From a virus (Duplodnaviria > Caudoviricetes): a stretch of DNA of 32,916 bases. Positions 4,471-32,916 of the stretch are shown piece by piece. The notes beneath the pieces were generated by a model. It saw nothing but the letters and a program-made list of their open reading frames with translations, made no database searches and was not told the origin of the DNA. A program made the translations under genes and the position numbers. The stretch is taken from the IMG/VR virus record IMGVR_UViG_3300032218_002106, positions 1-32,916 of that record. One strand, written 5' to 3'. How positions within the stretch are numbered: the stretch's first letter is position 1; each line of letters begins with the position of its first letter.

Positions 4471-5924
4471 TGGCTATTCCTTGGCCAGCATCTCCAGCCG
4501 TAGGTGATACTTTCACTTATGGTGGAATTACTTATACTTGGAATGGTGTTGCGTGGGTTAATGCTATAACTAATACTCCTGCTGGAACTGCTGGAGTTTT
4601 GTCTGTAACAGCCAGTTCACCAATTAGTTCTTCTGGTGGAACTGCACCAAACATTACTATTGACCAAACACTTCTTTCTATAACTAAAAGTCAGATAAGT
4701 GATTTTACTTCTGGTACGGTTGCTTTTTCTAGTACTTCTGGTACAGCCGTTTATGCTTCTACTGCTGGTACATCTGTCTATGCAACTACGGCTGGTACAG
4801 CAGACTATTCAACTCTTTCAGGTACAGCCGTAAACATTTCTGGTTCTATAACTCGGTCAAAAGTTAGCGATTTTGCTACGGGTACTGTTGCTTCTGCAAC
4901 TTTAGCTGGTACGGCTACTTATGCGACTACTTCTGGTACAGCCACTTATAGCACTACTTCTGGTACGGCTGTTTATGCTACTAATGCTGGTACGGCAGTA
5001 GGTATTTCTGGTTCAATAACAAAATCACAAATATCGGACTTTACAGCTGGTACTGTGAATACAATTTCTGGTTCAATAACAAAATCACAAGTTAGCGATT
5101 TCACTTCTGGAACAGTTACAACTATTTCTGGTTCAATTACAACTACACAAGTCACAGGTACTGCTGTAATAACTTCTGACAGTCGTTTATCTGATGCTAG
5201 AACACCAACTGCACATACTCACGGAAACATAAGTAATACTGGAACTCTTACAACAGTTATAACGCCTTCTGCATCAGTAGCAGTTTTAGCAAATAGTTCA
5301 ACAAATACAATAGGTCTTTTAGGAACTGCTACAAGTGTATCTACACAGTTTTTGCGTGGAGATGGAACATGGCAAGTTCCTGCTGGTGGTAGTAGCGGTG
5401 TAATACCTAACTTTAGAGTTTTTCCAACTGGAAACTATTTCACGGCTAAAGCAACTGGGTCAACATCATCAGTAACATTGACAATGACTGCTATACCTTT
5501 TTGGGTATCAACATCAACAACTTTTACTAAAATCGGTATCTATGTTTCAAGCACAGGTTCTTCAAGTGCTTTTAGATTAGGCATTTGGAACAATAACGCA
5601 ACAACAGATAAACCAGATACTTTATTTGCAGACTATGGAACTGTGTCAACAACAAGCACAGGATTTAAAGAAGTTACTGGACAAACAATCACTTTGTCTG
5701 CTGGTTTATGGTGGATTGGTGGAGTAAATACAGGTTCACCTGGTGCGACAGTTTCTGCAACTATAATTGGTTATCCATTACATCCAATTCCGCATACATC
5801 TGCACCATCATCAACTAGCGCATATAACGCCTATTCTGGAACATATGTTTCTGGAACTTTACCAACATTTGTCGGTGCATCTACTCCTGCAACACAAGGT
5901 TTTCTAGTTTGGTTAGGATTGTAA
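4470..5924 (+). CDS. Ser/Thr/Gly-rich fibre protein with internal repeats
   Basis: N-terminal WPASPAVGDTFTYGGITYTWNG, repeats, DSRLSDARTPTAHTH (HxH) and QFLRGDGTW fibre motifs, globular C-terminus. Confidence 0.7.
   Translation: MAIPWPASPAVGDTFTYGGITYTWNGVAWVNAITNTPAGTAGVLSVTASSPISSSGGTAPNITIDQTLLSITKSQISDFTSGTVAFSSTSGTAVYASTAGTSVYATTAGTADYSTLSGTAVNISGSITRSKVSDFATGTVASATLAGTATYATTSGTATYSTTSGTAVYATNAGTAVGISGSITKSQISDFTAGTVNTISGSITKSQVSDFTSGTVTTISGSITTTQVTGTAVITSDSRLSDARTPTAHTHGNISNTGTLTTVITPSASVAVLANSSTNTIGLLGTATSVSTQFLRGDGTWQVPAGGSSGVIPNFRVFPTGNYFTAKATGSTSSVTLTMTAIPFWVSTSTTFTKIGIYVSSTGSSSAFRLGIWNNNATTDKPDTLFADYGTVSTTSTGFKEVTGQTITLSAGLWWIGGVNTGSPGATVSATIIGYPLHPIPHTSAPSSTSAYNAYSGTYVSGTLPTFVGASTPATQGFLVWLGL
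4680..5140 (+). repeat. Intragenic repeats: 20-aa ISGSITKSQ(I/V)SDFTxGTV units and 9-aa T(S/A)GTAxYAT units
   Basis: ATTTCTGGTTCAAT at 5004, 5064 and 5124 (60-bp period). 27-bp degenerate repeats at about 4735-4830 and 4905-5000. Confidence 0.85.
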
Positions 5925-6133: not shown

Positions 6134-7821
6134 TGCCATATTTTATTAGTGATAAGCAAGATGATTGCTCTGGTTGGGCTACTTTAAAGGTTGAAAATGG
6201 TGAACCTACTACTATTGCCTGTCATCCTACTAAGACTGCTGCTATAAAACAGATGGTTGCGTTATCTTTGGCTGAGAAAATTGACCCTGCTGGTGAGTAT
6301 GGTAAACGAGCTGTTGCAACCTATAATCCACCACAAGGCGTTATTGCTGCTGCTAAGAGGGCTTTAGTTTGGATTGCTGATGGTAAGGCTGGTAGTGGGT
6401 TTACTTCTGTTGGTAGGGCTAGGGCTTCACAACTTGCTTCAGGTAATTCTGTTTCTGCCGATACTGTTACTCGTATGAAGTCATACTTTGCTAGACATGA
6501 AGTAGATAAAAAAGCTACTGGTTTTCGTTCTGGTGAAGATGGTTTCCCTAGTGCTGGTAGAGTAGCGTGGGATGCTTGGGGTGGGGATGCAGGTCAGTCT
6601 TGGGTAAATGGTTTGGCTGATTTCCGTAAGGCTGGCGGTAAAAAGGCTGTTATTTCTGATATTGATGATACTTTGATTCATGCTGGTAAGCGTATGGATA
6701 AGACTTACAACTATCTTGAATCTTTAGATGTAGATGTTTTGTTGGTTACTGGCAGACCTGAATCAACCAGAGATGCCACTACTAAACAGTTAGCAGATTT
6801 AGACATTAGTTACAATCGTCTTTACATGAATACTGGTTCAAGTGCTAACAGTAATGCTTTTAAGAAGGCTAAGGCAGAGGAACTTTTAAAGACTTATGAC
6901 ATTGTGGAAGCAATTGAAAATAACCCTGATGCTAGACGAGGTTACTCTGATTTAGGGATTTCTACTAAAGACCCTGCTAAACTACCTATGATGGAACATC
7001 AAGATACTGTTGGCGATAATGAAGATGCGCCACAAAGGAATATTATGACGGATGCTAAACTTCGGTCAATTAGCCGAGCCGAAAAGATTATGGCTACTTT
7101 ACGCAAAATTAACGGCATCAAGCCTACTGCTGAAACTCGTGTTTTAGATGTTGATTTTGAGATTCGTGGCGAAGGTGATAAATTAACTTTTTCTGGTTAT
7201 GCAGCTGTATTCAATAGTGATAGCCAGCCTTTACCTTTCATTGAGCGTATTGCACCTGGTGCTTTTAAAAGGACACTTCAGGCTCGTAATGATGTGAAAC
7301 TTCTTTGGAATCACGATTCGGGTGAAGTTTTAGCAAGCACTCGCTCTGGCACTATGAGGTTAGTTGAAGATTCTCATGGTTTAAGAGTTGAAGCAGACAT
7401 TGCCCCAACAACTAGGGGTAAAGATTTAAGTATTTTAATGCAGCGTGGAGATGTCAATAAGATGTCTTTTGGTTTTACTGTGCAACAGGATTCTTGGTCT
7501 CCTGACGGTAATACTAGAACTTTAGAGTCTGTTAGACTTGCCGAAGTATCAATTGTGACCTTTCCAGCCTACGAATCGAGTGTTGCCCAAGTGCGTTCAT
7601 TAGACCAAATAGATACAGAAAAACTTTCTGATGCTTTACTAGCATTAGAGACAAGTGATTCATTGACTCCAGACCAAGCAGGTTTGTTAGAAAATGTTAT
7701 CAAACAACTTACTAAAGGTGAAACACCAGTAGAAGAAGTTGTTGAAGAAGAACCTGAAGAACCTGTCACTATGATAGGCTTACTTCAGTTGAAGCACACT
7801 CTGGAAGGAAAGATGCTCTAA
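6133..7821 (+). CDS. Multidomain prohead maturation protease: N-terminal domain of unknown function + HAD (PNK 3'-phosphatase-like) domain + HK97-family protease
   Basis: HAD motifs ISDIDDTL, LVTGRP and FKK. Protease motifs FSGYAAVFN, LLWNHD, MSFGF and EVSIVTFPAY. Confidence 0.88.
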   Translation: MPYFISDKQDDCSGWATLKVENGEPTTIACHPTKTAAIKQMVALSLAEKIDPAGEYGKRAVATYNPPQGVIAAAKRALVWIADGKAGSGFTSVGRARASQLASGNSVSADTVTRMKSYFARHEVDKKATGFRSGEDGFPSAGRVAWDAWGGDAGQSWVNGLADFRKAGGKKAVISDIDDTLIHAGKRMDKTYNYLESLDVDVLLVTGRPESTRDATTKQLADLDISYNRLYMNTGSSANSNAFKKAKAEELLKTYDIVEAIENNPDARRGYSDLGISTKDPAKLPMMEHQDTVGDNEDAPQRNIMTDAKLRSISRAEKIMATLRKINGIKPTAETRVLDVDFEIRGEGDKLTFSGYAAVFNSDSQPLPFIERIAPGAFKRTLQARNDVKLLWNHDSGEVLASTRSGTMRLVEDSHGLRVEADIAPTTRGKDLSILMQRGDVNKMSFGFTVQQDSWSPDGNTRTLESVRLAEVSIVTFPAYESSVAQVRSLDQIDTEKLSDALLALETSDSLTPDQAGLLENVIKQLTKGETPVEEVVEEEPEEPVTMIGLLQLKHTLEGKML

Positions 7822-7982
7822 TGGCTACTAAAGAACAAATTATTGCAACTATACTTGAAGTCGCTGGCAACCCTGCTGCTGGTGAAATTAAAGATTTAGC
7901 AGAAGCATTTGCTGATGCAGTTGTTGCTATTGATACTCCTGCTAAAGAAGTAAGAGTATTGGAAGCAAAAGAAACTCGCTAG
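7821..7982 (+). CDS. Hypothetical 53-aa protein (MATKEQIIATILEVAGNP...)
   Basis: Translated by hand. TAATG coupling to the protease gene and normal codon usage. Confidence 0.7.
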   Translation: MATKEQIIATILEVAGNPAAGEIKDLAEAFADAVVAIDTPAKEVRVLEAKETR

Positions 7983-8002
7983 TTATTCCCTTTTCTAGCG
8001 AC

Positions 8003-8045
8003 ACCCCACTAGGTTAATTCCCTTTCCCTGGTGGGGTTTTCTTTT
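8003..8045 (+). terminator. Rho-independent terminator preceded by a second hairpin (7976-8001)
   Basis: ACCCCACTAGG / CCTGGTGGGGT stem followed by a T-run. Confidence 0.75.
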
Positions 8046-8064: not shown

Positions 8065-8126
8065 TAGACTTAAAGAGTAGTTGAGTGTCAGCACCGCTAC
8101 ATCTGTTGCGTGTTAGCACCACAGGT
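8065..8126 (+). promoter_or_regulatory. Putative late promoter -10 (TAGACT) and tandem-hairpin 5' leader of the capsid gene
   Basis: TAGACT at 8065-8070. Two similar hairpins at 8077-8100 and 8101-8126. Confidence 0.5.
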
Positions 8127-9350: not shown

Positions 9351-9390
9351 AAAGCCCCCCTAGTGTGCGTAGGCATTAGGGGGGTTTTCT
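9351..9390 (+). terminator. Rho-independent terminator after capsid gene
   Basis: AAAGCCCCCCTAGTGT / GCATTAGGGGGGTTTT stem. Confidence 0.8.
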
Positions 9391-9428
9391 TATGCTATTC
9401 TAGTCTTACCTACTACGAAAGGCAATAA

Positions 9429-10628
9429 ATGGGAAAAATAAAGGGTGCGGTTTCAATTTTATCTAATAGTCCTTATCTACCTACTGGTTATGGTATTCAG
9501 GCTGGTTATCTTGTTGACCGTTTGAAGCGTGATGGTGTTGATGTTGCTGCTCTAAGTAATTTTGGTCTTGATGGTATTAATAGCACTTTAAAAACTCCTT
9601 ATGGTGACATTCCTCATTATGCTAGGGGTTTTGAAGCGTATTCTAATGATGTTGTTGCTATGAATCATGCTCACCATGTCGGTAATGCTAATAGGGCTTC
9701 TAAAACAAAGTTGAATGATGTTTTATTTACCCTTTATGATGTTTGGGTTTTTAAAGGGGAAGCATTTGACAGTATTAAGCAGATTGCTTCTTGGACTCCT
9801 TTAGACCATTTGACTATGCCACCTGGAGTTCTTCAATGGCTTAGGAAACCTAATGTTCTTCCTATTGCTATGTCTCCACATGGTAAGAGACAGATGGAAG
9901 AAAATGGTTTAGAGTGTGAATACATCCCTCATGTTGTTGATACTAAAGTTATGAAACCCACTCATACTGTTGCTGGTGTAGATACTCGTAAGTTTATGGG
10001 TATAGGTGAAGATGATTTTGTTGTTGGTATGAACGCAGCTAATAAGGCTTCTGGCATGATTCACCGTAAGGCTTTCGCTGAGAACATTATGGCTTTCAGT
10101 ATTTTTGCTAAGAATCGGCCTGATGCAAAACTTTATTTACATACAGACCCTTTTGGTGGTGCTGGTGGCTGGAATTTGTTTGTTCTTTGTGAATCTTTAG
10201 GGTTGAAGCGTGAACAGGTTATTTTTCCTGACATTGCAGATTATCGTTATGGTATTAGTCAAGAGATACTTGCCGCCTACTATACGGCTATGGATGTAAT
10301 GTTAACGCCTTCTTTTGGGGAAGGATTTGGTGTTCCCACCATAGAAAGCCAATCCTGTGGGACACCCGTAATTGGCTCTAATTGGGCTGCAACGCCTGAC
10401 CTTGTATCTGAAGATTCGTATTTAGTTGATGGGCAACCTGCTTGGGATGCTGGACAGAACTCTTGGTGGCAGACTCCTTCTATTCCTGCTATAACTAATG
10501 CTCTTGAAACTGCTTACGCTAATAAAGGTAAAAAGTCTGAAAAGAGTATTGAGTTTGCTAAACAGTTTGATGTTGATAATGTTTGGACTAAAGACTGGCT
10601 ACCTTTGTGGAAAAAACTTCTTGCATGA
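9429..10628 (+). CDS. Glycosyltransferase, GT-B fold (GT4-like)
   Basis: N-terminal PTGYG and C-terminal YTAMDVMLTPSFGEGFGVPTIESQSCGTPVIGS (E-x7-E signature). Confidence 0.92.
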   Translation: MGKIKGAVSILSNSPYLPTGYGIQAGYLVDRLKRDGVDVAALSNFGLDGINSTLKTPYGDIPHYARGFEAYSNDVVAMNHAHHVGNANRASKTKLNDVLFTLYDVWVFKGEAFDSIKQIASWTPLDHLTMPPGVLQWLRKPNVLPIAMSPHGKRQMEENGLECEYIPHVVDTKVMKPTHTVAGVDTRKFMGIGEDDFVVGMNAANKASGMIHRKAFAENIMAFSIFAKNRPDAKLYLHTDPFGGAGGWNLFVLCESLGLKREQVIFPDIADYRYGISQEILAAYYTAMDVMLTPSFGEGFGVPTIESQSCGTPVIGSNWAATPDLVSEDSYLVDGQPAWDAGQNSWWQTPSIPAITNALETAYANKGKKSEKSIEFAKQFDVDNVWTKDWLPLWKKLLA

Positions 10629-11272
10629 TACCTGTTTTGGGTTTTCTTACACTTAAACGCTTTGATTTGGCAGATAGATTACTTGCAAGCATTGACTATC
10701 CTGTTGAAGATTTAATTATTATAGATAATTCGGGTAAGCGTGAGTATCAACCTGTAAAACCTGAATTGGTTAAGCGAATGTGGTTTATTCAAGTTCCTCA
10801 TGGCTTAGGTTATGGTGGTGGTTTGAATTTAATTATTAAATCTACACCGTTTGCCCCGTACTGGGTTTTATTGAATGATGATAGTGTGCTTGCGCCTGGT
10901 GCTTTGCAGAAGATTGCTGAAGAAGCTGACCCTAATACCATCAATTTTTTGACTATTATGCCTAAATGGTCTGGCTTTGTTTTGGGTGAAAAAGTTGTTA
11001 AAGATGTTGGTTTGTTTGATGAGCGTTTTCATCCTATCTATTTTGAAGATAACGATTATGAACGCAGGTTACAGAATGCTGGTTTTGAAGCCAATTTTAT
11101 TCATGCTATTTTATCGCATGACAATAGTTCTACTTTGGCTACTGGCTTTCATAGTCAAAATAACATTACTTTTAACCGTAATCACATGCTTTACATTAAA
11201 AAAGAAAATGAAGAAGATTTTTCTGAAGGTAATTGGTCTTTACAGATTAGGCGGGATAATTCGTGGGAGTAG
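10625..11272 (+). CDS. Glycosyltransferase, GT-A fold (GT2-like)
   Basis: IIIDNS, LLNDD and VGLFDERFHPIYFEDNDY motifs. ATGA overlap gives start 10625. Confidence 0.9.
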   Translation: MIPVLGFLTLKRFDLADRLLASIDYPVEDLIIIDNSGKREYQPVKPELVKRMWFIQVPHGLGYGGGLNLIIKSTPFAPYWVLLNDDSVLAPGALQKIAEEADPNTINFLTIMPKWSGFVLGEKVVKDVGLFDERFHPIYFEDNDYERRLQNAGFEANFIHAILSHDNSSTLATGFHSQNNITFNRNHMLYIKKENEEDFSEGNWSLQIRRDNSWE

Positions 11273-20447: not shown

Positions 20448-20734
20448 TGAACTGGAAATCTAGGGTTAAAGATGTTATTGAGGTTGTGGCTACGCTTGCT
20501 TGGCGTAGTTTTGGTATTTTTCTTTACATCCTGGGTGGTTCTATGGGTGTTGGTGCAGCTCTTACAGGCAACTGGGTGACTGGTGTTATTGTGGCTTGGG
20601 GAACACTTATGTTAGGTGTTATTGGTGTTATTGGTTATGCGATTGCTACTACTGGTAAGGCTACTAAGGATGATGTTGCTAGAGGTTCTCAGGATGCTAT
20701 CCAGAAGGCTAAAGAATCCGTCGAGAAGAAATAG
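20447..20734 (+). CDS. Putative holin
   Basis: Two to three TM segments, charged C-terminus, coupled to the endolysin gene. Confidence 0.65.
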   Translation: MNWKSRVKDVIEVVATLAWRSFGIFLYILGGSMGVGAALTGNWVTGVIVAWGTLMLGVIGVIGYAIATTGKATKDDVARGSQDAIQKAKESVEKK

Positions 20735-21058: not shown

Positions 21059-21925
21059 ATGTCTAATAAATTAAATCATGGGTTGTATGGTTCGGCTAAG
21101 TTGATTGGCGATTTTGAGAATCAGAGTCCTGAGTGGCATGAATTGCGGGCTTCAGGTATTGGTGGTTCTCAGGTTGGTACGATTCTTGGGTTGAATCCTT
21201 GGGAGTCTGCTTTTACTTTGTGGGCTAAGTTGACTAAGCGTATTGACGATAGTTTTGAACAGAATGAGAAGATGCGTTGGGGAACTATTGTTGAACCGCT
21301 TATTTTTGATGAGTGGGGTTTGCGTAACCCTGAATACAAAATGTTTACTACTGGTACTTGGGCTGATGGTTGGAAGCATGCTAATCCTGATGGCATTTTG
21401 TTTGATGGTGAAACTTATGGTCTGTTAGAGATTAAGACTGCTGGTTATCGTTTTGATTCTGTGCCTGAGCATTATGTAGCTCAATGTATGTGGTACATGC
21501 ATTTGCTTGGTTTGAAATGGTGTAAGGTCGTTGTACTATTTCAGGGTAATCAGTTGGAGACTTTTCATCTTGACTATCAACCTGATTTTGTTGACCGTAT
21601 GGTTGCTAGGGTTGAAGAATTTTGGTCTAAGTTGACTAAGGATGTGCCACCTGATTGGGATGGTTCTGAAAGCACTTTCCAGACTGTTAGGGTTATGAAT
21701 CCGAGCATTGTGGATGATGAGGTTGAGTTGGGTGAGTTGGGAACTAATTTATTGTTTCTTCAGGCTGACCTTGATTTGACTTCGCAAAGAGTTACAAAGT
21801 TAAAGAGCCAGATTCTTGACCTTATGGGTGATGCGAAATATGGTTCTTTAAATGGCAATGTTATTGCTACCCGTTCTTCCAGAAATGGTGGGACACCGTA
21901 TCTATCAATTAAGACAAAGGGCTAA
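21059..21925 (+). CDS. YqaJ/lambda-exonuclease-family recombination nuclease
   Basis: EWHELRASGIGGS, ANPDG, LEIKT and YVAQCMWYM motifs. Confidence 0.93.
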   Translation: MSNKLNHGLYGSAKLIGDFENQSPEWHELRASGIGGSQVGTILGLNPWESAFTLWAKLTKRIDDSFEQNEKMRWGTIVEPLIFDEWGLRNPEYKMFTTGTWADGWKHANPDGILFDGETYGLLEIKTAGYRFDSVPEHYVAQCMWYMHLLGLKWCKVVVLFQGNQLETFHLDYQPDFVDRMVARVEEFWSKLTKDVPPDWDGSESTFQTVRVMNPSIVDDEVELGELGTNLLFLQADLDLTSQRVTKLKSQILDLMGDAKYGSLNGNVIATRSSRNGGTPYLSIKTKG

Positions 21926-21927
21926 AA

Positions 21928-22116
21928 ATGGAAAAGTTACCTGCATTAAATGACAAAGTGCTTTTGATTTACAGCACAAATGATAAAGAAAAAACAACTG
22001 TTATTGGGCGTGTTACTGGCGTTCAATTCTTTAATGATGTGACACCAGGAGTGCAGATTGCTGGTATTGGTTGGGTTTATTTGAATGAAAAGTTTTTCTG
22101 GTCGGTGATTGCATAA
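21928..22116 (+). CDS. Hypothetical protein
   Basis: Tightly packed ORF in the recombination operon. Confidence 0.6.
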   Translation: MEKLPALNDKVLLIYSTNDKEKTTVIGRVTGVQFFNDVTPGVQIAGIGWVYLNEKFFWSVIA

Positions 22117-22694
22117 TGGAAGCTAGAGAATTGGTTGTTGAAATTATGAAGGAAGTTCAGGGGCTTGCTAAGAAGGATAAGAATACTTCGCAGGGCTTTA
22201 ATTTTCGTGGTATTGATGCTGTTATGAATGTGGTTGGCCCTGCTTTGCGTAAGCATGGTGGGTTTATTGTTCCTAGTGTGTCGGATGTTTCTACTTCTGT
22301 TGCTACTACTAAGAGTGGCGGGTCTTTGAACATTTCTCGTTTGAAGGTCAGTTATTCAGTTTTTGGTAGTGAGGGTGAACCTATTACTGGAACTGTTGCT
22401 GCTGAAGCTATGGATTCGGGTGATAAGGCTACGGCTAAGGCTATGAGTGTTGCTTATAGAACTTTTTTACTTCAGTTGTTGTGTCTGCCTACTGATGAGC
22501 CTGACCCTGATTCTTTCAGTTATGAGTTGGCTTCTAAGGCTACTGAGGACATTTATCAGTTGGCTTCTGATGCTTACTATCATAAGGATTTGGCTAAGTT
22601 GAAGATTTTGTATGTTGAAGCACAGCAAGCGAAGTTACCTGCCGAGAAGTTAGAGAAAATAGTGATGTGGGGTAAAGAACTTGGAAATATTTAG
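22116..22694 (+). CDS. ERF-family ssDNA annealing protein
   Basis: FNFRGIDAV, DSGDKATAKAMSVAYR and DPD motifs. Partner of the exonuclease. Confidence 0.88.
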   Translation: MEARELVVEIMKEVQGLAKKDKNTSQGFNFRGIDAVMNVVGPALRKHGGFIVPSVSDVSTSVATTKSGGSLNISRLKVSYSVFGSEGEPITGTVAAEAMDSGDKATAKAMSVAYRTFLLQLLCLPTDEPDPDSFSYELASKATEDIYQLASDAYYHKDLAKLKILYVEAQQAKLPAEKLEKIVMWGKELGNI

Positions 22695-23019
22695 TCCAGA
22701 CCAAGTTATTGCCAAGCTGAATGAACTTATCCAGTCTGGTGAAAAAGGTGTTAATGCTTTATATGATGCTGAGATGAAAGTTGCTGATAGGGATTTGGTT
22801 TATGAGAAGGCTTATCAGTCTGCATTTCTTGAAGCGCAAGGAACTGTTGCTGATAGGACTGCTGTTGCTCGTTTAAAGACTGCGGAGTTAAAGTTTGAGC
22901 ATGACATGGCTAAGGTTGAGTTGAGTCGTGTGAAGGCTAAAATTAAACAGATTTCGGATGCTGGTACTTTAACTGCTGTTATCGCTAAACAGGTGGAATT
23001 GACTTTTAGGCATGGTTAG
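22681..23019 (+). CDS. Hypothetical coiled-coil protein
   Basis: Helical ORF overlapping both neighbours. Confidence 0.7.
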   Translation: MEIFSPDQVIAKLNELIQSGEKGVNALYDAEMKVADRDLVYEKAYQSAFLEAQGTVADRTAVARLKTAELKFEHDMAKVELSRVKAKIKQISDAGTLTAVIAKQVELTFRHG

Positions 23020-23353
23020 TAAGACTGTTTGGGCTAAGGTTTTACAGCGTGATGTGTGTTGTTGGCATTGTGGGCGGATGGATGAAACTCTTGTGCCACA
23101 GCACCGCATCAATCGTGGTATGGGTGGTTCTAAATTATTGGATGTGCCATCTAATTTGATTGCTTTGTGTAGTGAATCTAATGTTTTGATGGAATCTAAC
23201 GCTGAGTTTCGTGAGAAGTCTTTGGTTAATGGTTGGAAGTTGGAGAGATTCAAGTTCCCTGAGCGAGTACCTGTCTATGATTTTATGAAGGGTGACTGGT
23301 TTTTAATTGATAATGACTGGAATAAGTCTCTTTATCGTTTGAATTTAAATTAA
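23012..23353 (+). CDS. HNH-like nuclease
   Basis: RD..CWHCG...QHR...GMGG...NLIALC...N pattern. Confidence 0.7.
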   Translation: MVSKTVWAKVLQRDVCCWHCGRMDETLVPQHRINRGMGGSKLLDVPSNLIALCSESNVLMESNAEFREKSLVNGWKLERFKFPERVPVYDFMKGDWFLIDNDWNKSLYRLNLN

Positions 23354-23357
23354 GGAA

Positions 23358-23684
23358 ATGACTATGGATGATTCACAAGTGTTGAAAAAGGTTAGGGATG
23401 ATGCTGAGTGGTTGGCTTATTTGTTGGCTTTGGAGAAGGAACGGCACGATTCTAGTCATGTCACTAATGCTCAGATTGTTGCTGAAGCTAAGGAGAATTT
23501 AACTAGAAGCCAGGTTCGTCATGTGAAGGCTTTGGTGGATGCTGAAATTGAGCAGTTGGAGTCTATGAGGGAACAGCGAGATAAGTTGTTTTTTAATGCT
23601 GGTAGGTATGCGGCTGGTGCTTTGGATGAGGTTGCGTCGGCTTCTCACAGGATTATGGATGCTTTGTTAGATAGCGAAGGGTAA
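23358..23684 (+). CDS. Hypothetical protein
   Basis: AAGGA RBS, in operon. Confidence 0.7.
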   Translation: MTMDDSQVLKKVRDDAEWLAYLLALEKERHDSSHVTNAQIVAEAKENLTRSQVRHVKALVDAEIEQLESMREQRDKLFFNAGRYAAGALDEVASASHRIMDALLDSEG

Positions 23685-23737
23685 AAGATGTTAAACCTAC
23701 GCAAAAACGCCTTTAAACGCCCTCTAGGGGGCTTTAG

Positions 23738-24529
23738 ATGAGTGTAGAGATGATAAGCCTTGTTTTGAACACCAGTCGTGCTGAGGGGCGAGCAAAACTT
23801 GTTTTGATTGGTATTGCTAATCATCATGGAGATAATGGTGCTTGGCCATCTATTGCTACTTTGGCTAGATACGCTAATTCGTCTGAAAGGTCTATTAAAC
23901 GAGATTTACAGCATCTTCAGGAAATAGGTGAGATTTCGGTTGAAATAAATGGCTCTGATTTTGGTGGTCAATACAAGACAAATAAGTATTGGATTTTGTT
24001 GGCAGGGGTGACAGGTCAGGTAAGCAGGGGTGACAGACTGGGTAATTCAGGGGTGACAGATATGGCACACAAACCATTAAAAGAAACATATATAAACCTA
24101 TATGCTCATTTTGACGAATTCTGGAATGTTTATCCTCGTAAGGTTTCTAAACGAGCTGCCCTGAAAGCGTTTGAATCTGCTTTGGGTAGAGCAAACCATG
24201 ACGAGATTTTGGCTGGTGCTATTCGGTTCGGGCATGACCCTAATCTTCCACCAGCAGAGTTTATTCCTTATCCGACAACTTGGTTGAATGGTGATAGGTG
24301 GGGTGATGCGCCTTTACCTGAGAGAACTAAGTCTAGGGATGAGGTGATTGCTGAAGCCAGAGCGTTAGAGGAAATTAATAGGGCTAAGTTTAAGGAAATT
24401 CAGAAACAGCGAGCTTTGGAAGAAAAGTTGCGTGAAGAAGAAGTGAAGAAGAACGCCCCTAAACTTTGTGAGCATGAACGAATCATCTGGAACTGTTATG
24501 AGTGCAAGTTGCGTAAGAAGAATAAGTAA
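23738..24529 (+). CDS. Replication initiator with N-terminal HTH
   Basis: KLVLIGIANH...AWPSIATLA HTH. FDEFWNVYPRKVSK and YPTTWLNGDRW C-terminal motifs. Internal iterons. Confidence 0.85.
   Translation: MSVEMISLVLNTSRAEGRAKLVLIGIANHHGDNGAWPSIATLARYANSSERSIKRDLQHLQEIGEISVEINGSDFGGQYKTNKYWILLAGVTGQVSRGDRLGNSGVTDMAHKPLKETYINLYAHFDEFWNVYPRKVSKRAALKAFESALGRANHDEILAGAIRFGHDPNLPPAEFIPYPTTWLNGDRWGDAPLPERTKSRDEVIAEARALEEINRAKFKEIQKQRALEEKLREEEVKKNAPKLCEHERIIWNCYECKLRKKNK
24003..24105. repeat. Iterons and AT-rich tract: putative replication origin
   Basis: CAGGGGTGACAG at 24003, 24025 and 24048, followed by an A/T-rich stretch. Confidence 0.75.
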
Positions 24530-24542
24530 ATAAACTGGTGGT

Positions 24543-24812
24543 GTGGATGATAACAAAATTATTTGTAATCGGTGTGGCTATTCTTGGGTTGTTGCCCCGC
24601 AGAAGCGTGACCGAACAGATTTGTTTTGTGTGTCTTGTCGTGCTAAACCCGCAAAAATTGTGCAGTATGGTAGTCTCAAATGTATTCCACATAAAGGCGA
24701 GTTCGCTGATGATGGAGTTACACCCTTATCTGGTGGGGTTGAAGTTTTACCAGGTGAAAGAATATGCAATCATTCCGATTGTGTAAATCCAAAACATATA
24801 GAGAAAGGGTAA
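24543..24812 (+). CDS. Cys-rich zinc-binding hypothetical protein
   Basis: CNRC, CVSC and CNHSDCVNPKH motifs. Confidence 0.65.
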   Translation: MDDNKIICNRCGYSWVVAPQKRDRTDLFCVSCRAKPAKIVQYGSLKCIPHKGEFADDGVTPLSGGVEVLPGERICNHSDCVNPKHIEKG

Positions 24813-24815
24813 ATT

Positions 24816-25115
24816 ATGCCCAACACAATTAAGGCAACAAATCTGACTGTAACGAAGGCTTTTCCAAAGTTTTTTGTTGCTTTTGATACTTTTAAGAAGT
24901 CGGATGGTACTGAAGGGAAACAAAACTATAAAGTTTGGTCAACTATTCCTGTGCAGACTGGTCATGTTGTAAACATTATTGGTTCGGCTTCAGCAAATGT
25001 TAATGAGTTTGTTGAACAGGCAACAGGTAAGAATGTTGTTTATGCACAGTTGTCTATTAATGCTAAGGAAGTTGAAATAGTTTCTAAAGCTGCATCTAAC
25101 TGGGATACATTTTGA
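24816..25115 (+). CDS. Putative single-stranded DNA-binding protein (OB fold)
   Basis: Beta-rich, YKVW, short tail ending WDTF. Replication context. Confidence 0.55.
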   Translation: MPNTIKATNLTVTKAFPKFFVAFDTFKKSDGTEGKQNYKVWSTIPVQTGHVVNIIGSASANVNEFVEQATGKNVVYAQLSINAKEVEIVSKAASNWDTF

Positions 25116-25270
25116 AGTTCGCCTATCTAATTCTGTTTGCAACTGTTGTTGAATTCATTTGGGTAGGCATGAACAGCGATTCAATGGAACAAGCAGTTTT
25201 ACCTTATGTTTTTGCGGGTATCTGGTTTCTTGTGCTTTGTGTGAACTACTATAAAAGGCATGATAACTAA
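25112..25270 (+). CDS. Small two-TM hypothetical protein (52 aa)
   Basis: Translated by hand. TTGA overlap, fills the gap to rusA. Confidence 0.55.
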   Translation: MKFAYLILFATVVEFIWVGMNSDSMEQAVLPYVFAGIWFLVLCVNYYKRHDN

Positions 25271-25649
25271 GTTTGCTGTTTTTGGTGTGCCAGCACCGCA
25301 GGGTTCTAAACGCCATGTTGGTAATGGTCGCATGATTGAAGCATCCAAGTATTTACCTGCTTGGCGTAAAGCTATTGAAACAGAATGTCAATCTTTATTT
25401 GAAGAACCTATTGACGGGGCTTTGGAAGTGGAACTTTGGTTTTATCTTCCAAGGCCTTCTTCTGTTTCTAGGGAGTATCCGAGTGTGATGCCCGATTTAG
25501 ATAAATTGGTGCGTAGTGTTGGAGATGGGCTGACTCAGGGTGGTGCGATTGCGGATGATGCCCGTATCGTTGATTTACACGCCTATAAGCGTTATTCGGT
25601 TGATGGTTGGACTGGCGTTCAAATACAGATTAGTCAAATAAAAGATTAA
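25260..25649 (+). CDS. rusA: RusA-family Holliday junction resolvase
   Basis: GVPAPQGSK, PDLDKLVRSVGDGL and ADDARIV motifs. Confidence 0.92.
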   Translation: MITKFAVFGVPAPQGSKRHVGNGRMIEASKYLPAWRKAIETECQSLFEEPIDGALEVELWFYLPRPSSVSREYPSVMPDLDKLVRSVGDGLTQGGAIADDARIVDLHAYKRYSVDGWTGVQIQISQIKD

Positions 25650-25670
25650 TTTTATTTTGGCGTGTTGCTA

Positions 25671-25700
25671 TTGACTTTGGGATACTTGCTGGACTAGATT
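25671..25700 (+). promoter_or_regulatory. SigA-like promoter
   Basis: TTGACT-18 bp-TAGATT in an intergenic gap, with GGCGTGT upstream. Confidence 0.6.
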
Positions 25701-25728
25701 TAGGTCTATGAACACAAGAAAGGGAAAC

Positions 25729-25863
25729 ATGGCTAAACACAGGGGCAACTACCAGTTCGGTGGTCGTTTATTTCAACAGTATTTACGCTTACAAAATCGT
25801 TGGCGTTTCTTTATTAAACCTAATTTGAAGGAAAGGATTTCTAATGTCTTGGGCGCAAAGTGA
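25729..25863 (+). CDS. Small basic hypothetical protein (44 aa, MAKHRGNY...)
   Basis: Translated by hand. GAAAGGGAAA RBS. Confidence 0.6.
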   Translation: MAKHRGNYQFGGRLFQQYLRLQNRWRFFIKPNLKERISNVLGAK

Positions 25864-26032
25864 AAAACTTAATGAGTGGATTGAACGGGCTTATGAGAAC
25901 GGTAAATCTGAGGAACAGCAACGCATAATCAATTTGCTTGAAACAACACCTTTTATTTGGATGGGTGATGTTCAATTAATACAAACAAGTAGAGATGAAT
26001 TAATTACTCTTATTAAGGGAGAAAACAAATGA
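25844..26032 (+). CDS. Hypothetical protein
   Basis: GAAAGGA RBS. EQQRIINLL motif. Confidence 0.65.
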   Translation: MSWAQSEKLNEWIERAYENGKSEEQQRIINLLETTPFIWMGDVQLIQTSRDELITLIKGENK

Positions 26033-26328
26033 CTAGACCTGACTTTGACCCAACTTGGCTTTTAGATTTGGCTAAAGATTCTGAAGATTTATTTAAAAAA
26101 ACTCTTGGCGTAATGTTAGATGCTCATAGAGAAGAAGCAGCTATTTTTGAGCGTGAACGAATCATTGCGCTGATAGAAAGCCTTGATGCTGAAACATGGA
26201 TGGGCGCTAATCTTCAAATAGCAGACCTTTTAAAAGGTGATGTTGCTGAGTGTGAGTGTGACCCTTGTGATAATGAAGATTGTAAATGTCGTATGAGTCG
26301 TTGCGATTATTGTATGGGCAATGAATAA
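26029..26328 (+). CDS. Hypothetical protein with Cys-rich C-terminus
   Basis: ERERIIALI motif and CECDPCDNEDCKCRMSRCDYC tail. Confidence 0.65.
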   Translation: MTRPDFDPTWLLDLAKDSEDLFKKTLGVMLDAHREEAAIFERERIIALIESLDAETWMGANLQIADLLKGDVAECECDPCDNEDCKCRMSRCDYCMGNE

Positions 26329-26462
26329 TGTTAGAACTATTTGCATCAGTTGGCATAGTTGGTTTAATAATGCTGATAATTGGTTTTGGTTTGTTGTGGT
26401 GGCTCGCACAAATCATTGAAGATAAAAACATATTTGATGATGAAAGGGATTTAAATGAATAA
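26328..26462 (+). CDS. Small single-TM protein (44 aa)
   Basis: Translated by hand. TAATG coupling. Confidence 0.55.
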   Translation: MLELFASVGIVGLIMLIIGFGLLWWLAQIIEDKNIFDDERDLNE

Positions 26463-28403: not shown

Positions 28404-28416
28404 TGAAAGGGATAAA

Positions 28417-28900: not shown

Positions 28901-28957
28901 GTTTTGGTTATTCGGTTCTAAAATTCGGTTGTGATGCCCGATACCCGATAACACGCC

Positions 28958-28991
28958 AAGCCCTCTAGTCTTTGTCCGCTAGGGGGTTTTT
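28958..28991 (+). terminator. Rho-independent terminator
   Basis: AAGCCCTCTAG / CTAGGGGGTTT stem followed by T-run. Confidence 0.7.
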
Positions 28992-29100
28992 GGCGTTTAT
29001 AACGGTTTTATAACGGTATGTGAAATGTGCGTGTTTTGTCGTGTCGTTTCTGTATTGTTGGTTTTGTAGCCAACAACGGCTACTAAATGAAAGGGAAAAA

Positions 29101-29214
29101 ATGATTACAATTTCAACTAAGGCAAAATGTCCAGAGTGTTCTAGGGTATTCAACTTGTTAGATGAAGAACAAGCAAGCGAGTTTTACTATGGACACGATT
29201 GCGAAGATAACTAA
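29101..29214 (+). CDS. Small Zn-finger-like protein (37 aa)
   Basis: GAAAGGGAAAAA RBS. CPEC...HDC motif. Confidence 0.7.
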   Translation: MITISTKAKCPECSRVFNLLDEEQASEFYYGHDCEDN

Positions 29215-29366
29215 TGGAAACTATTTACCGTATTACAGATAACACTAATCAGGTCTATAACATTGAGTTCAATAATGTTGAGTTGGCTAAAAAGTGGATT
29301 TACACACACCTAAACATAAAGGATATTCTTGCTATGGATATCAAGCCAATTAGAAAGGGAAAATAA
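29214..29366 (+). CDS. Hypothetical protein (50 aa, METIYRIT...)
   Basis: Translated by hand. TAATG overlaps at both ends. Confidence 0.65.
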   Translation: METIYRITDNTNQVYNIEFNNVELAKKWIYTHLNIKDILAMDIKPIRKGK

Positions 29367-29635
29367 TGAGCAACATAACTACCGAACAGACTTGGGAACT
29401 ATTACAGATACATAGTTTGCTTATAGACGGAGATGAACATAAGAAAAGTATTGGTATTTCTTTCTTTGTTGATTTTATTGAGACACACTTATTTACGGCA
29501 GATGTTGTCGGTTGGGTGTCTTGTATAAAGTGTGGTTGCGCTATTCAAAAGGATATAGCGGAAGAAGAACTGTATATGTGTGTGGAGTGTTCTAATACTT
29601 ATTACACACACGAAGAAGATAAGGGAGATAACTAA
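29366..29635 (+). CDS. Hypothetical Zn-finger protein
   Basis: CIKC and CVEC motifs. AAAGGGA RBS. Confidence 0.65.
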   Translation: MSNITTEQTWELLQIHSLLIDGDEHKKSIGISFFVDFIETHLFTADVVGWVSCIKCGCAIQKDIAEEELYMCVECSNTYYTHEEDKGDN

Positions 29636-29865
29636 TGGCTACTTTAGATATTGGAAGTAATTGTGTCTGGTGTAACCGAGATACCTCTTTTGGCTCAGGT
29701 CGCTTTGTGAATAGAATACCCGTAGGCACTGACCCTAATTTTGTTGAGTGGCTTTCTGATGAAGATAAAGCTAAGTATAACGAGGTTGAGGGTTATGGTT
29801 GTGCCGAGTGTTATGAAGATTGTGATTGTAATGATGAAGAAGAGGAAGAAAATGAAGAACTATAA
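29635..29865 (+). CDS. Hypothetical Cys-rich acidic protein
   Basis: CVWC...GSGRFVNRIP...CAEC motif. Confidence 0.7.
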   Translation: MATLDIGSNCVWCNRDTSFGSGRFVNRIPVGTDPNFVEWLSDEDKAKYNEVEGYGCAECYEDCDCNDEEEEENEEL

Positions 29866-29998
29866 AGTTAGGCTAAAACACGATACGGGTTTTGTTAGTG
29901 TGTTTGTTAGCGCTAATACTACTGGTAAAGCTATAAAGTTGGTTTGTAAGTCTGAGAAAGCGCCGTTTAGTGCGGTGCGGTCTGTAAAGTTAGCGTAA
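29852..29998 (+). CDS. Hypothetical protein (MKNYKVRLKHD...)
   Basis: Start trimmed to ATG 29852, with GAGG upstream. Confidence 0.6.
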   Translation: MKNYKVRLKHDTGFVSVFVSANTTGKAIKLVCKSEKAPFSAVRSVKLA

Positions 29999-30019
29999 AG
30001 GGAAAAGGATAAAGGGAAA

Positions 30020-30202
30020 ATGAAAACATACATGGTAAAAAATGAAGCAAGTCTAATCTATGAAATTGAAATTGAAGCCGAAAACGAAGAGCAAGCGCTA
30101 GAACTTGGTCAAAATAAATTATTTGACGGGTTAGGAACTGAAAGCCCTTATTCGTTTATTTGGACAGACTGGAGTGAAATTGAAGAAAAAAGAGATAACT
30201 AA
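30020..30202 (+). CDS. Hypothetical acidic protein
   Basis: AAAGGGAAA RBS. IEAENEEQA motif. Confidence 0.7.
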   Translation: MKTYMVKNEASLIYEIEIEAENEEQALELGQNKLFDGLGTESPYSFIWTDWSEIEEKRDN

Positions 30203-30378
30203 TGTATGGTTGTGGTAATCGTAAGTGTGTGAGTTGTCAACCGTTTACTTATGGTTGTGAGTATTGCGGGGCAGATTTTCAGATACCCGTAGCGAATGGC
30301 GATATCTATGTTTGTGATAGTTGTGGCTATGTTATAGATGAACAGTCAGACGAAATCAAGTTCGCTGATTTAGTATAA
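30202..30378 (+). CDS. Cys-rich hypothetical protein (58 aa)
   Basis: Translated by hand. CVSC, CEYC and CDSC motifs. Confidence 0.65.
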   Translation: MYGCGNRKCVSCQPFTYGCEYCGADFQIPVANGDIYVCDSCGYVIDEQSDEIKFADLV

Positions 30379-30396
30379 AGAAAAGGAAAAGGGAAA

Positions 30397-30669
30397 ATGA
30401 AAATAAAAACACTAATAGAACACTTACTAAAAGATAATGATTTGGAAGATGAAATTATTGTTGATTGGTTTGAAAAGTCAATGTATGAAGACTTACTATT
30501 CAATAAAGAAGATAAGTACACACGCAAAGAATTTGATAAAGCGTGGTTAGCTATTCAAGAAAACGGGCAGGAAGAGTTATCTAATATGTTGTCTCACTAT
30601 AACCTTGATTACGATATTCGGAATATGGTTTTAGATGAGATAGATGAGATGAGAAAAACTAATGGATAA
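30397..30669 (+). CDS. Hypothetical protein
   Basis: AAAGGGAAA RBS. Confidence 0.7.
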   Translation: MKIKTLIEHLLKDNDLEDEIIVDWFEKSMYEDLLFNKEDKYTRKEFDKAWLAIQENGQEELSNMLSHYNLDYDIRNMVLDEIDEMRKTNG

Positions 30670-30829
30670 TGATGAACTGCTACCTAAATGGTTTCCGCCC
30701 GCTAAAAAAGAAAAAACTGTTGGTTCTCTAGTTAGCAAGGCGGTAAGCATAAGTTTTATGGTGCTTTTTATCTTTGTTTTCCATATTTGTTTAGAGTTTA
30801 TATTTCAAAAGTCAGAAGGGAAAAAGTAA
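30662..30829 (+). CDS. Small single-TM protein (55 aa)
   Basis: Translated by hand. Fills the gap, with overlaps at both ends. Confidence 0.55.
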   Translation: MDNDELLPKWFPPAKKEKTVGSLVSKAVSISFMVLFIFVFHICLEFIFQKSEGKK

Positions 30830-31035
30830 TGAATTGGTATTCGTATTCGGTTGGAAAATCTGGTTTCAATCAAGTTGTAGGCGATATGGTGGAAGCCGAT
30901 ACTATCGGTCAGGCGATATCTATAATTCGGTCTGAAATCGGTTATTTGGTTCAGTTATCGGTTAGGCGGTCTTACTATGGTGAAACTGATTGCGATAACT
31001 TTACCTTTAGCGGTCATATGCAACATAATAAGTAA
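30829..31035 (+). CDS. Hypothetical protein (MNWYSYSVGK...)
   Basis: GAAGGGAAAA RBS and TAATG start. Confidence 0.6.
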   Translation: MNWYSYSVGKSGFNQVVGDMVEADTIGQAISIIRSEIGYLVQLSVRRSYYGETDCDNFTFSGHMQHNK

Positions 31036-31064
31036 TTCGGTCATAATTCGGTCTAAATTCGGTC
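31034..31064 (+). repeat. Three AATTCGGTC repeats at 11-bp period
   Basis: Copies at 31034, 31045 and 31056. Confidence 0.85.
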
Positions 31065-31110
31065 AGTATTTGGTTTGGTTTCTCCTATCGGTCAGCCTAA
31101 GCCATAGCCT

Positions 31111-31140
31111 AAGCCCCCGCCGTTTTGGTTGGGGGCTTTC
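31111..31140 (+). terminator. Terminator-like hairpin
   Basis: AAGCCCCC / GGGGGCTT stem followed by a short T tract. Confidence 0.6.
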
Positions 31141-31310
31141 GCCTATCTGTAAAGTCTTAGCACACAATCAAGCAAGACACGCTAAAAAACGATAACAATT
31201 ACGATATCTAACTGTTACCGTTTCGTTATCTTAATATCTAGCCTAAACACGCTTTTATATGTAACACTTAGGGAGTGGCAATAAAGCCACACTAAACGAA
31301 AAGGGAAAAA

Positions 31311-31748
31311 ATGAACAAGCAAGAAAAGGCAGAACTAGAGACACAAGCAAAGGACTACGCTAGGCAAATTCACGCCATAGTTACAGGGCAAGGCGGGAGT
31401 TTTGAGGTAGTTATACATAAGACAAGCCAATCTAATATGACTTGGTATTACTCGGTAAACTTGTGGTATTTTGACGAGAAACTAGGGCGGGTTAGGTCTT
31501 GGAACTTGAACTATGTTATGAGCCAATTCCTAGGGTTTGGAAAACTAAAAGACGAGAGACACCTAAAAGGCAACGGGGTAGGGACTGAAAGGAGTTTCCA
31601 GACAATCTATAACCTAGGGTTAGCGGTCTCTAAGGCGCTAAATTGGGCAGACTTTATAGACATTAAAGCTAGGTTTGGCGTTGAGTTTCAAGAAAACCCT
31701 TGGCGTTACGCTTATGTTTACACCGATAAAGTTACAGCAGTTTACTAA
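31311..31748 (+). CDS. Hypothetical protein
   Basis: AAAGGGAAAAA RBS. 145 aa. Confidence 0.75.
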   Translation: MNKQEKAELETQAKDYARQIHAIVTGQGGSFEVVIHKTSQSNMTWYYSVNLWYFDEKLGRVRSWNLNYVMSQFLGFGKLKDERHLKGNGVGTERSFQTIYNLGLAVSKALNWADFIDIKARFGVEFQENPWRYAYVYTDKVTAVY

Positions 31749-31766
31749 GAAAGGGAAAAGAAAAAA

Positions 31767-32165
31767 ATGAACGAGACAATTTTAGAAAACATACTAAATG
31801 AGTTCCGAAAGATAGGACTAATAGAGTTGCCAGAAAATGTTTTGGTATATTTCGCAGACCCCGACAAAGTGGCAGAGACCCCCTACCATATGGCAGGGGA
31901 GTTATTTAAGGATATGTATCACGAAGACCGTCTTGGTTATATCAATGTATCTTGGGGCAAATGGAATATCGTTTTAGGGTATGGCGACAGGAACGGTTCG
32001 GAAATGTGGGACGGCGTTTGGTCTTGGTCTGTTCAATACGATTACAACACTTATCCCGATTACTTTTCGGGCGAAATAAATAACGGCTCACCCGATTATG
32101 TAGTTTGGACATTGTTCGCACAACTAAGCGAACAAGTAGAAAAGTTAAGGGCTATCAATGCGTAA
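31767..32165 (+). CDS. Hypothetical protein
   Basis: GAAAGGGAAAA RBS. 132 aa. Confidence 0.75.
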   Translation: MNETILENILNEFRKIGLIELPENVLVYFADPDKVAETPYHMAGELFKDMYHEDRLGYINVSWGKWNIVLGYGDRNGSEMWDGVWSWSVQYDYNTYPDYFSGEINNGSPDYVVWTLFAQLSEQVEKLRAINA

Positions 32166-32259
32166 ATCTGTTCTTATCGCTAGGGAACTTGTCGGGACTA
32201 TGTTCTGGCTTTTTGTCTGGTGGTCTAGCCTTTGGGTTGTCTGTTTGCTTTTCGTTTAG
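32158..32259 (+). CDS. Small hydrophobic peptide (33 aa)
   Basis: Translated by hand. AAGGG RBS, ends just before a terminator. Confidence 0.45.
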   Translation: MRKSVLIARELVGTMFWLFVWWSSLWVVCLLFV

Positions 32260-32272
32260 CATCCTAAAACGA

Positions 32273-32303
32273 GAAACCCCCGTCTATTTTGGCGGGGGTT
32301 TTC
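32273..32303. terminator. Rho-independent terminator (possibly bidirectional)
   Basis: GAAACCCCCGTC / GGCGGGGGTTTT stem. Confidence 0.75.
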
Positions 32304-32718
32304 TGTTACCTAAATGTAACAATGACCCGCCAATATTCGGCAAACCTGAAAAGCCTATCCCCCTAAAACGCCCTAAAATGCCCTTAGAGACCTTGACCCC
32401 CTAAACTGACCTACCACACCAGACCACCCCTAAAAGTGTTTCTAGGGGCAACCTGACAAGCCTAGTTTGTTATCTAACTGTTATAAACTGTGGGCGTGTC
32501 TAAACTAAATATATGCTATGGGACACACGCTAAAAGAAAGAAACTAAAAGCCTTACCATATGCCACACCTAAAAGTCAATAGCAAACGATAACAATTTTG
32601 TTATCTTATCGTTACCGAAACGACACCTAAAACGCTACCTAAACACGCCCCTATATGGGACTATATAGATACAACTAAATAACTAAAATAACCAACACAA
32701 CGAAAGGGAAAAAAGAAA

Positions 32719-32892
32719 ATGACCAAAGTAGCAATTAGAGAATTAGTTAGAGAACTAATCATATTAGAGAAAAATGGAACACTAACTAACGATTACAAAA
32801 TGCCAAACCTAAGCCATACAGAAAACGCCTATTTTTGCGAATTGCTAGAAATGGCAACTTTCGCAATAAACACCGCCCAAAGTAAAAACTAA
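32719..32892 (+). CDS. Hypothetical protein (57 aa, MTKVAIRELV...)
   Basis: Translated by hand. GAAAGGGAAAA RBS. Confidence 0.65.
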   Translation: MTKVAIRELVRELIILEKNGTLTNDYKMPNLSHTENAYFCELLEMATFAINTAQSKN

Positions 32893-32916
32893 CAACACAA
32901 GAAAAGGAAAAAGGGA

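Follow-up and report, generated by a model that had tools for sequence, protein, structure and literature searches.

A pyrimidine-loop, terminator-like hairpin between a 53-aa gene and the capsid gene of an HK97-type phage family, and its possible pairing with early-gene ribosome binding sites

The window (i.e., the whole analysed stretch of 32,916 nucleotides) covers nearly the whole genome of an HK97-type phage. Its virion side (terS, terL, portal, protease, capsid, tail and lysis genes) lies left of 20.7 kb, and its right side carries RecE, Erf, HNH, replication initiator and RusA genes together with a small-gene cluster. This gene order is kept across relatives, which were gathered by protein-based scans of IMG/VR, metagenomes and genomes. 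Since the closest cultured phage, phiPsal1 (capsid 49% identical), infects Pontimonas, and since one MAG, titled uncultured Microbacteriaceae, contains a related contig, a small-genome member of the Microbacteriaceae is the probable host. At the boundary between the late and early sides, a WhiB-like gene is located on the opposite strand (20709-21011, minus strand); it is conserved in relatives and is a candidate transcriptional partner of an early/late switch.

The locus under study surrounds the end of a short gene upstream of the capsid gene, and comprises the following features:

7772..7780, plus strand: weak candidate for an extended -10 (TGnTAnnnT), lying within the protease gene at its 3' end
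7821..7982, plus strand: gene for a 53-aa protein (MATK...ETR), conserved, which anchors the hairpin element in relatives
7976..8001, plus strand: hairpin 1 (stem 7976-7982/7995-8001; loop 7983-7994, UUAUUCCCUUUU), a lineage-restricted second copy
8003..8037, plus strand: hairpin 2 (stem 8003-8013/8027-8037; loop 8014-8026, UUAAUUCCCUUUC), terminator-like, with a pyrimidine loop that is found family-wide
8037..8045, plus strand: U-rich tail of the terminator, kept in relatives
8065..8070, plus strand: -10-like hexamer of a putative separate capsid promoter, downstream of the terminator

The first-pass annotation of this DNA had described the twin stems with their loops, and both were confirmed on the sequence. 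The same core indeed recurs in the two loops, with TTCCCTTT occurring only twice on the plus strand, i.e., once per loop. Contrary to the earlier statement, the head operon does not stop at the hairpins, which lie between the 53-aa gene and the capsid gene. Specifically, the stop codon of the 53-aa gene falls within stem 1, and a U-tract is present at hairpin 2 but not at hairpin 1. The 111-nt region folds with -33.7 kcal/mol (z = -4.39; 1 of 200 shuffles as good), and in a 360-nt context the CCCUU cores are unpaired with a probability of about 1.0.

Hairpin 2 has the hallmarks of an intrinsic terminator, namely a stem rich in G+C and, where a gene ends, a U-tract behind it. Since its U-rich tail is followed by the -10-like hexamer and the capsid leader, the element appears to close the terS-to-53-aa unit; judged from these signals, hairpin 2 and its U-tract form a terminator-like end to the unit of terminase, portal, protease and 53-aa genes, with the putative capsid promoter following. 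A simple terminator scan of the window did not pick up hairpin 2, because it allowed only loops of 3-8 nt and the loop of hairpin 2 measures 13 nt. No Rfam match at the gathering level was obtained anywhere in the window. The 53-aa protein has two predicted helices and gave no Pfam, PHROG or fold match (best Atlas score 0.85, to an unnamed entry); in view of this lack of matches, a role for it as RNA chaperone was rejected.

Several other elements of the window were observed alongside. The capsid leader (8078-8125) contains two copies of a GAGTGT(C/T)AGCACC-like motif, which is likewise doubled in relatives in a lineage-specific sequence and could possibly be a translational operator. Behind the capsid gene (9352-9392) lies a terminator with a conserved GCGUAG loop that perhaps overlaps the next promoter. 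Another terminator, with an 8-nt pyrimidine loop, precedes the small-gene cassette cluster (28959-28990); its loop is kept as CUUUGUCC/UUUUGUCC in the close clade and reads CCUCUCUCU in relative G001, and its complement was found at a few early ribosome binding sites (RBS). Finally, clusters of a short ATT(C/T)(A/G)GT(T/C) repeat are situated around the HNH gene and in the cassette region (28270-28923 and 30845-31068), and this repeat is dense in relatives too.

The first-pass annotation had proposed stem covariation and loop conservation as a check of its reading, and both were found. Across 22 close sequences, 99.2% of stem 2 cells were paired and two-sided changes occurred in 6 of its 11 pairs (0 of 500 shuffles as high; slid controls at 40-54%). 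Stem 1 was paired in 92% of cells with 1 of 6 pairs compensatory, and is nearly fixed because it overlaps the coding sequence of the 53-aa gene. Family-wide, 425 locus hits (with loci found by loop pattern left out) yielded 193 distinct elements, 186 of which carry a G-rich terminator-like hairpin and 7 of which do not. The 123 distinct hairpins are built on 71 different inner arms and have a median loop of 12 nt that is 87% pyrimidine, with CUU(U/C) in 117 loops (and thus missing from 6), CUUUC in 83, CCCUU in 68 and UCCUU in 17. In contrast, among 58 other terminator-like hairpins from these genomes the loop has a median length of 6 nt, with CCCUU in none and CUU(U/C) in 10 of them. Moreover, a hairpin pattern scan of 2.9 million IMG/VR viral contigs returned 42 loci, 30 of them directly behind the 53-aa gene.

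These data also qualify the earlier description of the element as a pair of twin hairpins: both exist in the window, but the family-wide element is a single terminator loop, and its doubling is lineage-specific, as a hairpin 1 bearing a CCC loop is found only in the close clade and a few further relatives. The cultured phage phiPsal1 shares the 53-aa gene without the hairpin-loop element, and distant blastn among 50,697 records found no cultured phage with the element.

The RBS of the family were compared in 35 genomes or fragments (the rearranged G108 being left out) using starts from a simple purpose-made gene caller, with genes called early (the RecE-to-terS stretch) or late (the rest) by gene content and synteny, not by expression. 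In the window, AAAGGG is present in the RBS windows of 11/27 early/middle genes versus 0/27 late genes, and the shorter AAGGG in 14/27 versus 0/27. The earlier statement that the motif precedes more than a dozen genes thus holds for AAGGG, with AAAGGG itself at slightly fewer. AAGGG is found at 9 of the 12 cassette genes, and AAAGGGAA has 9 occurrences, every one right of 25.7 kb. The (A)GGAG sites that the first-pass annotation had described were confirmed for terS and for the capsid, adaptor and tail tube genes, and the 165-aa tail gene uses (A)GGAG as well. The predicted target RBS are as follows:

21916..26449, plus strand: middle region, with AAAGGG at 21916, 24804, 25719 and 26443, and AAGGG at 26015
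29090..32915, plus strand: small-gene cassettes, with AAAGGG at 29090, 29354, 29997/30011, 30388, 31300, 31750, 32703 and 32910, and AAGGG at 29621 and 30816

This early/late split extends to the relatives. AAAGGG occurs at 98/522 early versus 5/568 late starts in 23 genomes with a CCC loop (two of which were reached through the loop pattern), at 1/92 versus 0/100 in the limited sample of four genomes with other loops, at 3/68 versus 0/79 in three loop-less genomes, and at 2/342 genes of the candidate hosts (400 kb from five small Microbacteriaceae genomes). The base following AAGG is G in 159 and A in 91 early cases of the CCC phages, versus G in 21 and A in 119 late cases, and G in 20 and A in 25 cases in hosts. 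Caller-free counts of AAAGGG agree, with 75 in 88 kb of early versus 1 in 138 kb of late sequence in the close clade (8.5 vs. 0.07 per 10 kb), and 2.7 early versus 0.13 late per 10 kb in other CCC phages; relative to the latter, densities are 0.2 in alternative-loop genomes (p 8e-5) and 0.84 in loop-less ones (p 0.018). The correspondence is not strict: AAGGG persists at 13/67 early starts of the loop-less G019, G097 and phiPsal1, with phiPsal1 contributing 4 of its 23 early starts, and G016 and G018 carry CCC loops, yet AAGGG was called at only 0/18 and 1/23 of their starts.

A comparison with the 16S rRNA suggests how such a motif could discriminate between gene classes. The 16S tail of the candidate host family reads CCUCCUUUCU and the 16S end GAUCACCUCCUUUCU (the 18-mer pattern, with at most 2 mismatches, was matched in 48 of 61 genomes). 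As the 16S tail takes AAAGGA (A-U) and AAAGGG (G-U wobble) alike and a CCCUUU loop takes only AAAGGG, one wobble-neutral base can tag early genes. By base-pairing rules, such a tag can spare late genes, which use AGGAG or AAGGA.

The fit between loop and RBS was quantified as duplex energy. At starts with a strong Shine-Dalgarno sequence (SD), a duplex with the phage's own loop of -8 kcal/mol or lower was reached at 12/13 early versus 0/11 late starts of the window, 77/112 versus 6/70 in the close clade, and 122/234 versus 29/135 in other CCC phages. A merely stronger SD in early genes was rejected as cause of the split, as the window counts are confined to strong SDs. In the four alternative-loop genomes, the own terminator loop gave no early/late separation at strong-SD starts (13/66 vs. 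5/33, p 0.78). On the whole coding strand of the window, the six best loop sites are all early RBS, and the 26 best comprise 14 at early starts and 0 at late starts. The pairing seeds measure 7-10 bp and lie inside the closed loop. A longer, one-bulge pairing with 29621-29634, claimed earlier, is real but requires stem 1 to open, and hairpin 1 is expected to be opened by ribosomes finishing the 53-aa gene.

Whether loops and early RBS vary together, the other check put forward by the first-pass annotation, was assessed in a double-centred loop-by-genome matrix with one genome per lineage. Each loop fitted its own early RBS better than foreign ones, by a residual of -0.36 kcal/mol (p ~1e-4 over 15 lineages, in a permutation that treats lineages as independent) that became -0.38 kcal/mol with other lineage representatives. 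The signal survived every leave-one-out, and no effect appeared in upstream, early-coding and late-RBS control windows (p 0.21-0.88). Within the 12 CCC lineages the residual was -0.20 kcal/mol (p 0.005), fading without G000 and G008 (p 0.09) and disappearing when G104 was removed as well (p 0.30).

Two further analyses, one stricter and one finer, gave no clear support. An independent-pair test on a protease-only tree (chosen because a concatenated tree misplaced fragments with missing genes; 33 of 35 genomes with at least 12 early starts) was underpowered, with 4 well-supported pairs of which mostly 1-2 ran in the predicted direction (sign test p 0.5). Single-base covariation was likewise unconvincing, with AAGGGG in 16/61 cases for four-C loops versus 16/127 for three-C loops (12/50 once the close clade was taken out), and with no difference between CCCUUU and CCCUUC loops.

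Which RNA carries the loop was approached through upstream promoter signals. The candidate extended -10 recurs, with five different middle codons, upstream in 18 of 19 sequences from the close clade, the exception being a mis-called start; family-wide it is found in 23/201 (background 0.9%), and a plain TAnnnT in 102/201 (background 14%). On this evidence it may be the promoter for a ~260-nt RNA with the 53-aa gene and both loops, or a coding artefact. In one metatranscriptome (0.06 share of words), contigs of relatives cover the region; as these are contigs only, they were not counted as evidence.

The gap between terminator and capsid promoter was also observed to be an insertion hot spot for structured, gene-less units of 80-300 nt (contigs L004, L012, L016, L017 and L023), one of which holds another CCCCCUUUU stretch. 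In two relatives (L431:629-711, and 5569-5650 of L040, i.e., phiPsal1) Rfam tmRNA matches above cut-off were obtained (59.5 and 54.6 bits) that span only ~82 nt, corresponding to the tRNA-like domain without tag reading frame, between terminator and capsid promoter. Further tmRNA look-alikes behind the terminator (L002, L014, L025 and L089) scored below cut-off, and ARAGORN found none.

Structure, covariation, a family-wide loop, the early/late split of the RBS and the lineage-by-lineage fit together form the comparative base for interpretation. They argue that the hairpin is a real, selected RNA element, with comparative evidence pointing to a class-specific anti-RBS role. The reading that we prefer, at a probability of roughly 60%, is that the terminator loop pairs in trans with the AAAGGG RBS of early/middle genes and blocks their translation once late transcription has begun. 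The trans-silencing idea of the first-pass annotation thereby gains support from stem covariation, loop conservation and loop/early-RBS co-variation. The unpaired CCCUUUC loop, doubled in the lineage of the window and complementary to the AAAGGG RBS, would be delivered by the 3' end of the terS-to-53-aa transcript, by the ~260-nt RNA from the internal promoter, or by a processed 3' fragment. It would pair with the RBS without a chaperone, as reported for the 6C sRNA, so that ribosomes would be occluded and early mRNAs would decay faster. The RNA species, its timing, the pairing in vivo and the repression are what we infer from the comparative data.

Pairing in cis with a neighbouring RBS agrees less well with the data, and so does broad host shut-off. 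An interaction in cis between the loop and the RBS of the 53-aa gene or the capsid gene was rejected, as mean energies were -5.0 and -4.4 kcal/mol and AAGGG was present at 2/118 and 0/118 of them; the capsid RBS did show a small cis residual of -0.15 (naive p 0.009, not tree-corrected).

Another reading, which we hold to be unlikely, takes the loop as a protein ligand that mimics the 3' tail of the 16S rRNA (the protein being, for example, an S1-like factor, an anti-SD-cutting nuclease or a phage protein), so that the loop would protect the transcript or titrate the bound protein and the RBS match would be a by-product. The most constant part of the loop, CUUUC (83/123), is indeed the 16S tail of the candidate host family, and some loops are near copies of that tail. 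However, CCCUU is commoner than the host-type UCCUU (68 vs. 17 of 123), a host-protein ligand gives no reason for a best fit to the phage's own early RBS, and the matching CU tracts of relatives with AGAGAG RBS (see below) would be left unexplained.

At slightly longer odds, the loop may pair with AG-rich RBS as proposed, its main targets being mRNAs of the host or early mRNAs from a superinfecting relative. With loop 2, 36/138 strong-SD starts of candidate hosts reach -8 kcal/mol, and cross-silencing would be automatic because relatives share the AAAGGG class. Nevertheless, the loop fits best to the phage's own early RBS, and in the 400 kb of candidate hosts AAAGGG is found at 2/342 genes and 7/342 reach -10 kcal/mol, versus AAAGGG at 11/27 own early genes.

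Control might also run in reverse, with abundant early mRNAs binding the loop and thereby destabilising or sponging a premature late transcript, or altering read-through into the capsid gene. This direction is equally compatible with complementarity and covariation, and the hairpin is located just upstream of the capsid gene, but we consider it quite improbable: one early RNA would be enough, yet many genes carry the complement where their SD lies; a promoter of its own seems to serve the capsid gene, and unrelated RNAs are inserted between terminator and capsid in several relatives; and the stand-alone CU units described below have no late mRNA to control.

That the element is a plain intrinsic terminator, with the pyrimidine loop and the early AAAGGG as inherited lineage habits that never pair in vivo, would be marginally more surprising still. 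The loop has been altered or lost without known cost (6/123 without CUU(U/C), 7/193 without hairpin) and the independent-pair test was not significant; against this, the loop outlasts 71 different stems, the loops of other terminators are short and unrelated, and the fit is confined to early RBS windows. Finally, a stoperator-like repressor or activator site in the DNA, common to early starts and the capsid promoter region, is very improbable despite the short motif repeated near gene starts and lying 30 bp from the downstream -10 in 20/64 elements, since its orientation in loops is opposite to that in RBS and the core is always enclosed by a covarying stem; a promoter element of fixed spacing was rejected, with core-to--10 spacing ranging from 30 to over 300 bp.

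Relatives that use another early RBS bear on the trans-pairing reading as well. Cassette genes of G094, G102, G096 and G099 carry AGAGAG as RBS. In G099 the own terminator loop, CUCUUUCU, fits AGAGAG, and in G094, G102 and G096 a separate non-coding unit was found in which a consensus -35/-10 promoter is followed by an unpaired CU tract and a strong hairpin. These stand-alone units, running from promoter to hairpin, are located as follows:

L329, near 10107-10250: CU-tract unit
L534, near 4433-4600: CU-tract unit
L333, near 4529-4640: CU-tract unit

None of the three units had an Rfam match. Their CU tracts reach -12 kcal/mol or lower at 16/34 early versus 3/28 late starts in G094, 6/18 versus 0/11 in G102, and 8/28 versus 0/30 in G096, a support that stems from three genomes in two lineages and was found after the fact. 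The same tracts also fit 4-7 of the 27 early starts of the window, and CU-tract length did not correlate with AGAGAG use over 35 genomes (rho 0.18, p 0.31). Because their promoters are of the consensus housekeeping type, the units need not be late.

CU tracts of G010, G014 and G033 were not counted as support, as they lie inside the stems of larger structures. Upstream of an ssb-like gene, these three genomes have a stretch of several hundred bases that is devoid of genes and strongly folded (near L170 5945, L177 5060 and L533 11608), with no Rfam match in L170 or L177. In G020, a second terminator with a CCCCCUUUC loop was noted, preceded by a consensus promoter and situated immediately ahead of the HNH gene (L187, near 10976-11130).

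Taken more broadly, the early/late switch of these phages might rely on a second code within the SD, in which early but not late genes would be tagged at a wobble-neutral base (AAAGGG, with AGAGAG in other lineages), and the tag would be read by a terminator loop closing the first virion transcript, or by a stand-alone CU-tract RNA in lineages with a changed tag, so that the whole early class is silenced, a generalisation for which we see the chances as evenly balanced. How small phages without a polymerase or sigma factor of their own turn off early genes is largely an open question. If true, the loop and a one-base RBS tag would constitute a protein-free shut-off that is readable from sequence, would account for the unusual A/G-rich RBS that small-gene cassettes of aquatic actinophages carry, would make early genes classifiable from sequence, and would provide a compact class-specific translational switch for Actinobacteria.

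Like known anti-SD sRNAs, the element presents an unpaired seed that is complementary to several SD regions and conserved apart from its stem. One of these, RNAIII, codes for a small protein as well, a feature that the predicted ~260-nt RNA would share; unlike the phage element, RNAIII and RsaE are Firmicute chromosomal regulators, and the Rfam scan gave no match to them. RNAIII, RsaE and other sRNAs with a UCCC motif similarly use an unpaired UCCC seed to block the SD (PMC4132741, in part). The best Rfam look-alike of the element was LhrC of Listeria (RF00616), with 27.3 bits (E 0.04) and 24.1 bits for one relative, well short of the gathering cut-off of 110 bits. LhrC carries its UCCC/CU-rich motif in two loops including the terminator loop, through which it binds AG-rich SDs (PMC4132741). 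The window likewise has a UCCC-type motif in more than one loop including that of the terminator, with two sites; LhrC, however, is a chromosomal sRNA that stands alone, is induced by LisRK and has three sites (PMC4132741, in part), whereas the phage loop ends a virion-gene transcript and is predicted to target a class of genes of the phage itself.

The 6C sRNA (B11, RF01066) also resembles the element, with C-rich loops that bind G-rich RBS on many mRNAs and need no chaperone; it belongs to Actinobacteria, the phylum of the likely hosts (PMC6486639, in part). Its loops hold runs of about six C, unlike the CCCUUU of the phage loops with 3-5 C followed by U; no 6C match was found in the window at the gathering level or at E <= 10, nor in any of 5 candidate host genomes. 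By analogy, the phage element would work like LhrC or 6C, but it belongs to neither family. A literature search, with most subscription papers outside its scope, found no description of the element, and the available part of a 2025 phage sRNA review (PMC12197685) contained no such case. Three of the six supplement files of the IMG/VR structured-RNA catalogue (PMC10690425; sequence archives excluded) gave no match, and the hairpin may be among the 1,241 terminator-containing candidates of that catalogue.

Two further systems share the logic instead of the molecule. UTR-derived, sigma28-dependent sRNAs of the E. coli flagellar regulon let the last gene class feed back on a timed assembly cascade, but depend on an Hfq-type host system with other target modes that are apparently not based on RBS class (PMC10578931, in part). 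T4 RegB inactivates early transcripts via an SD motif and spares late ones; it does so as a protein nuclease that cuts GGAG with S1 as cofactor (PMC3014915, in part), whereas in these phages a wobble-neutral SD variant would be recognised by an RNA loop, and the PHROG hits of the window include no RegB-like protein. If the second code exists, it would thus be an RNA-only counterpart of T4 RegB that co-evolves with its targets across a large phage family.
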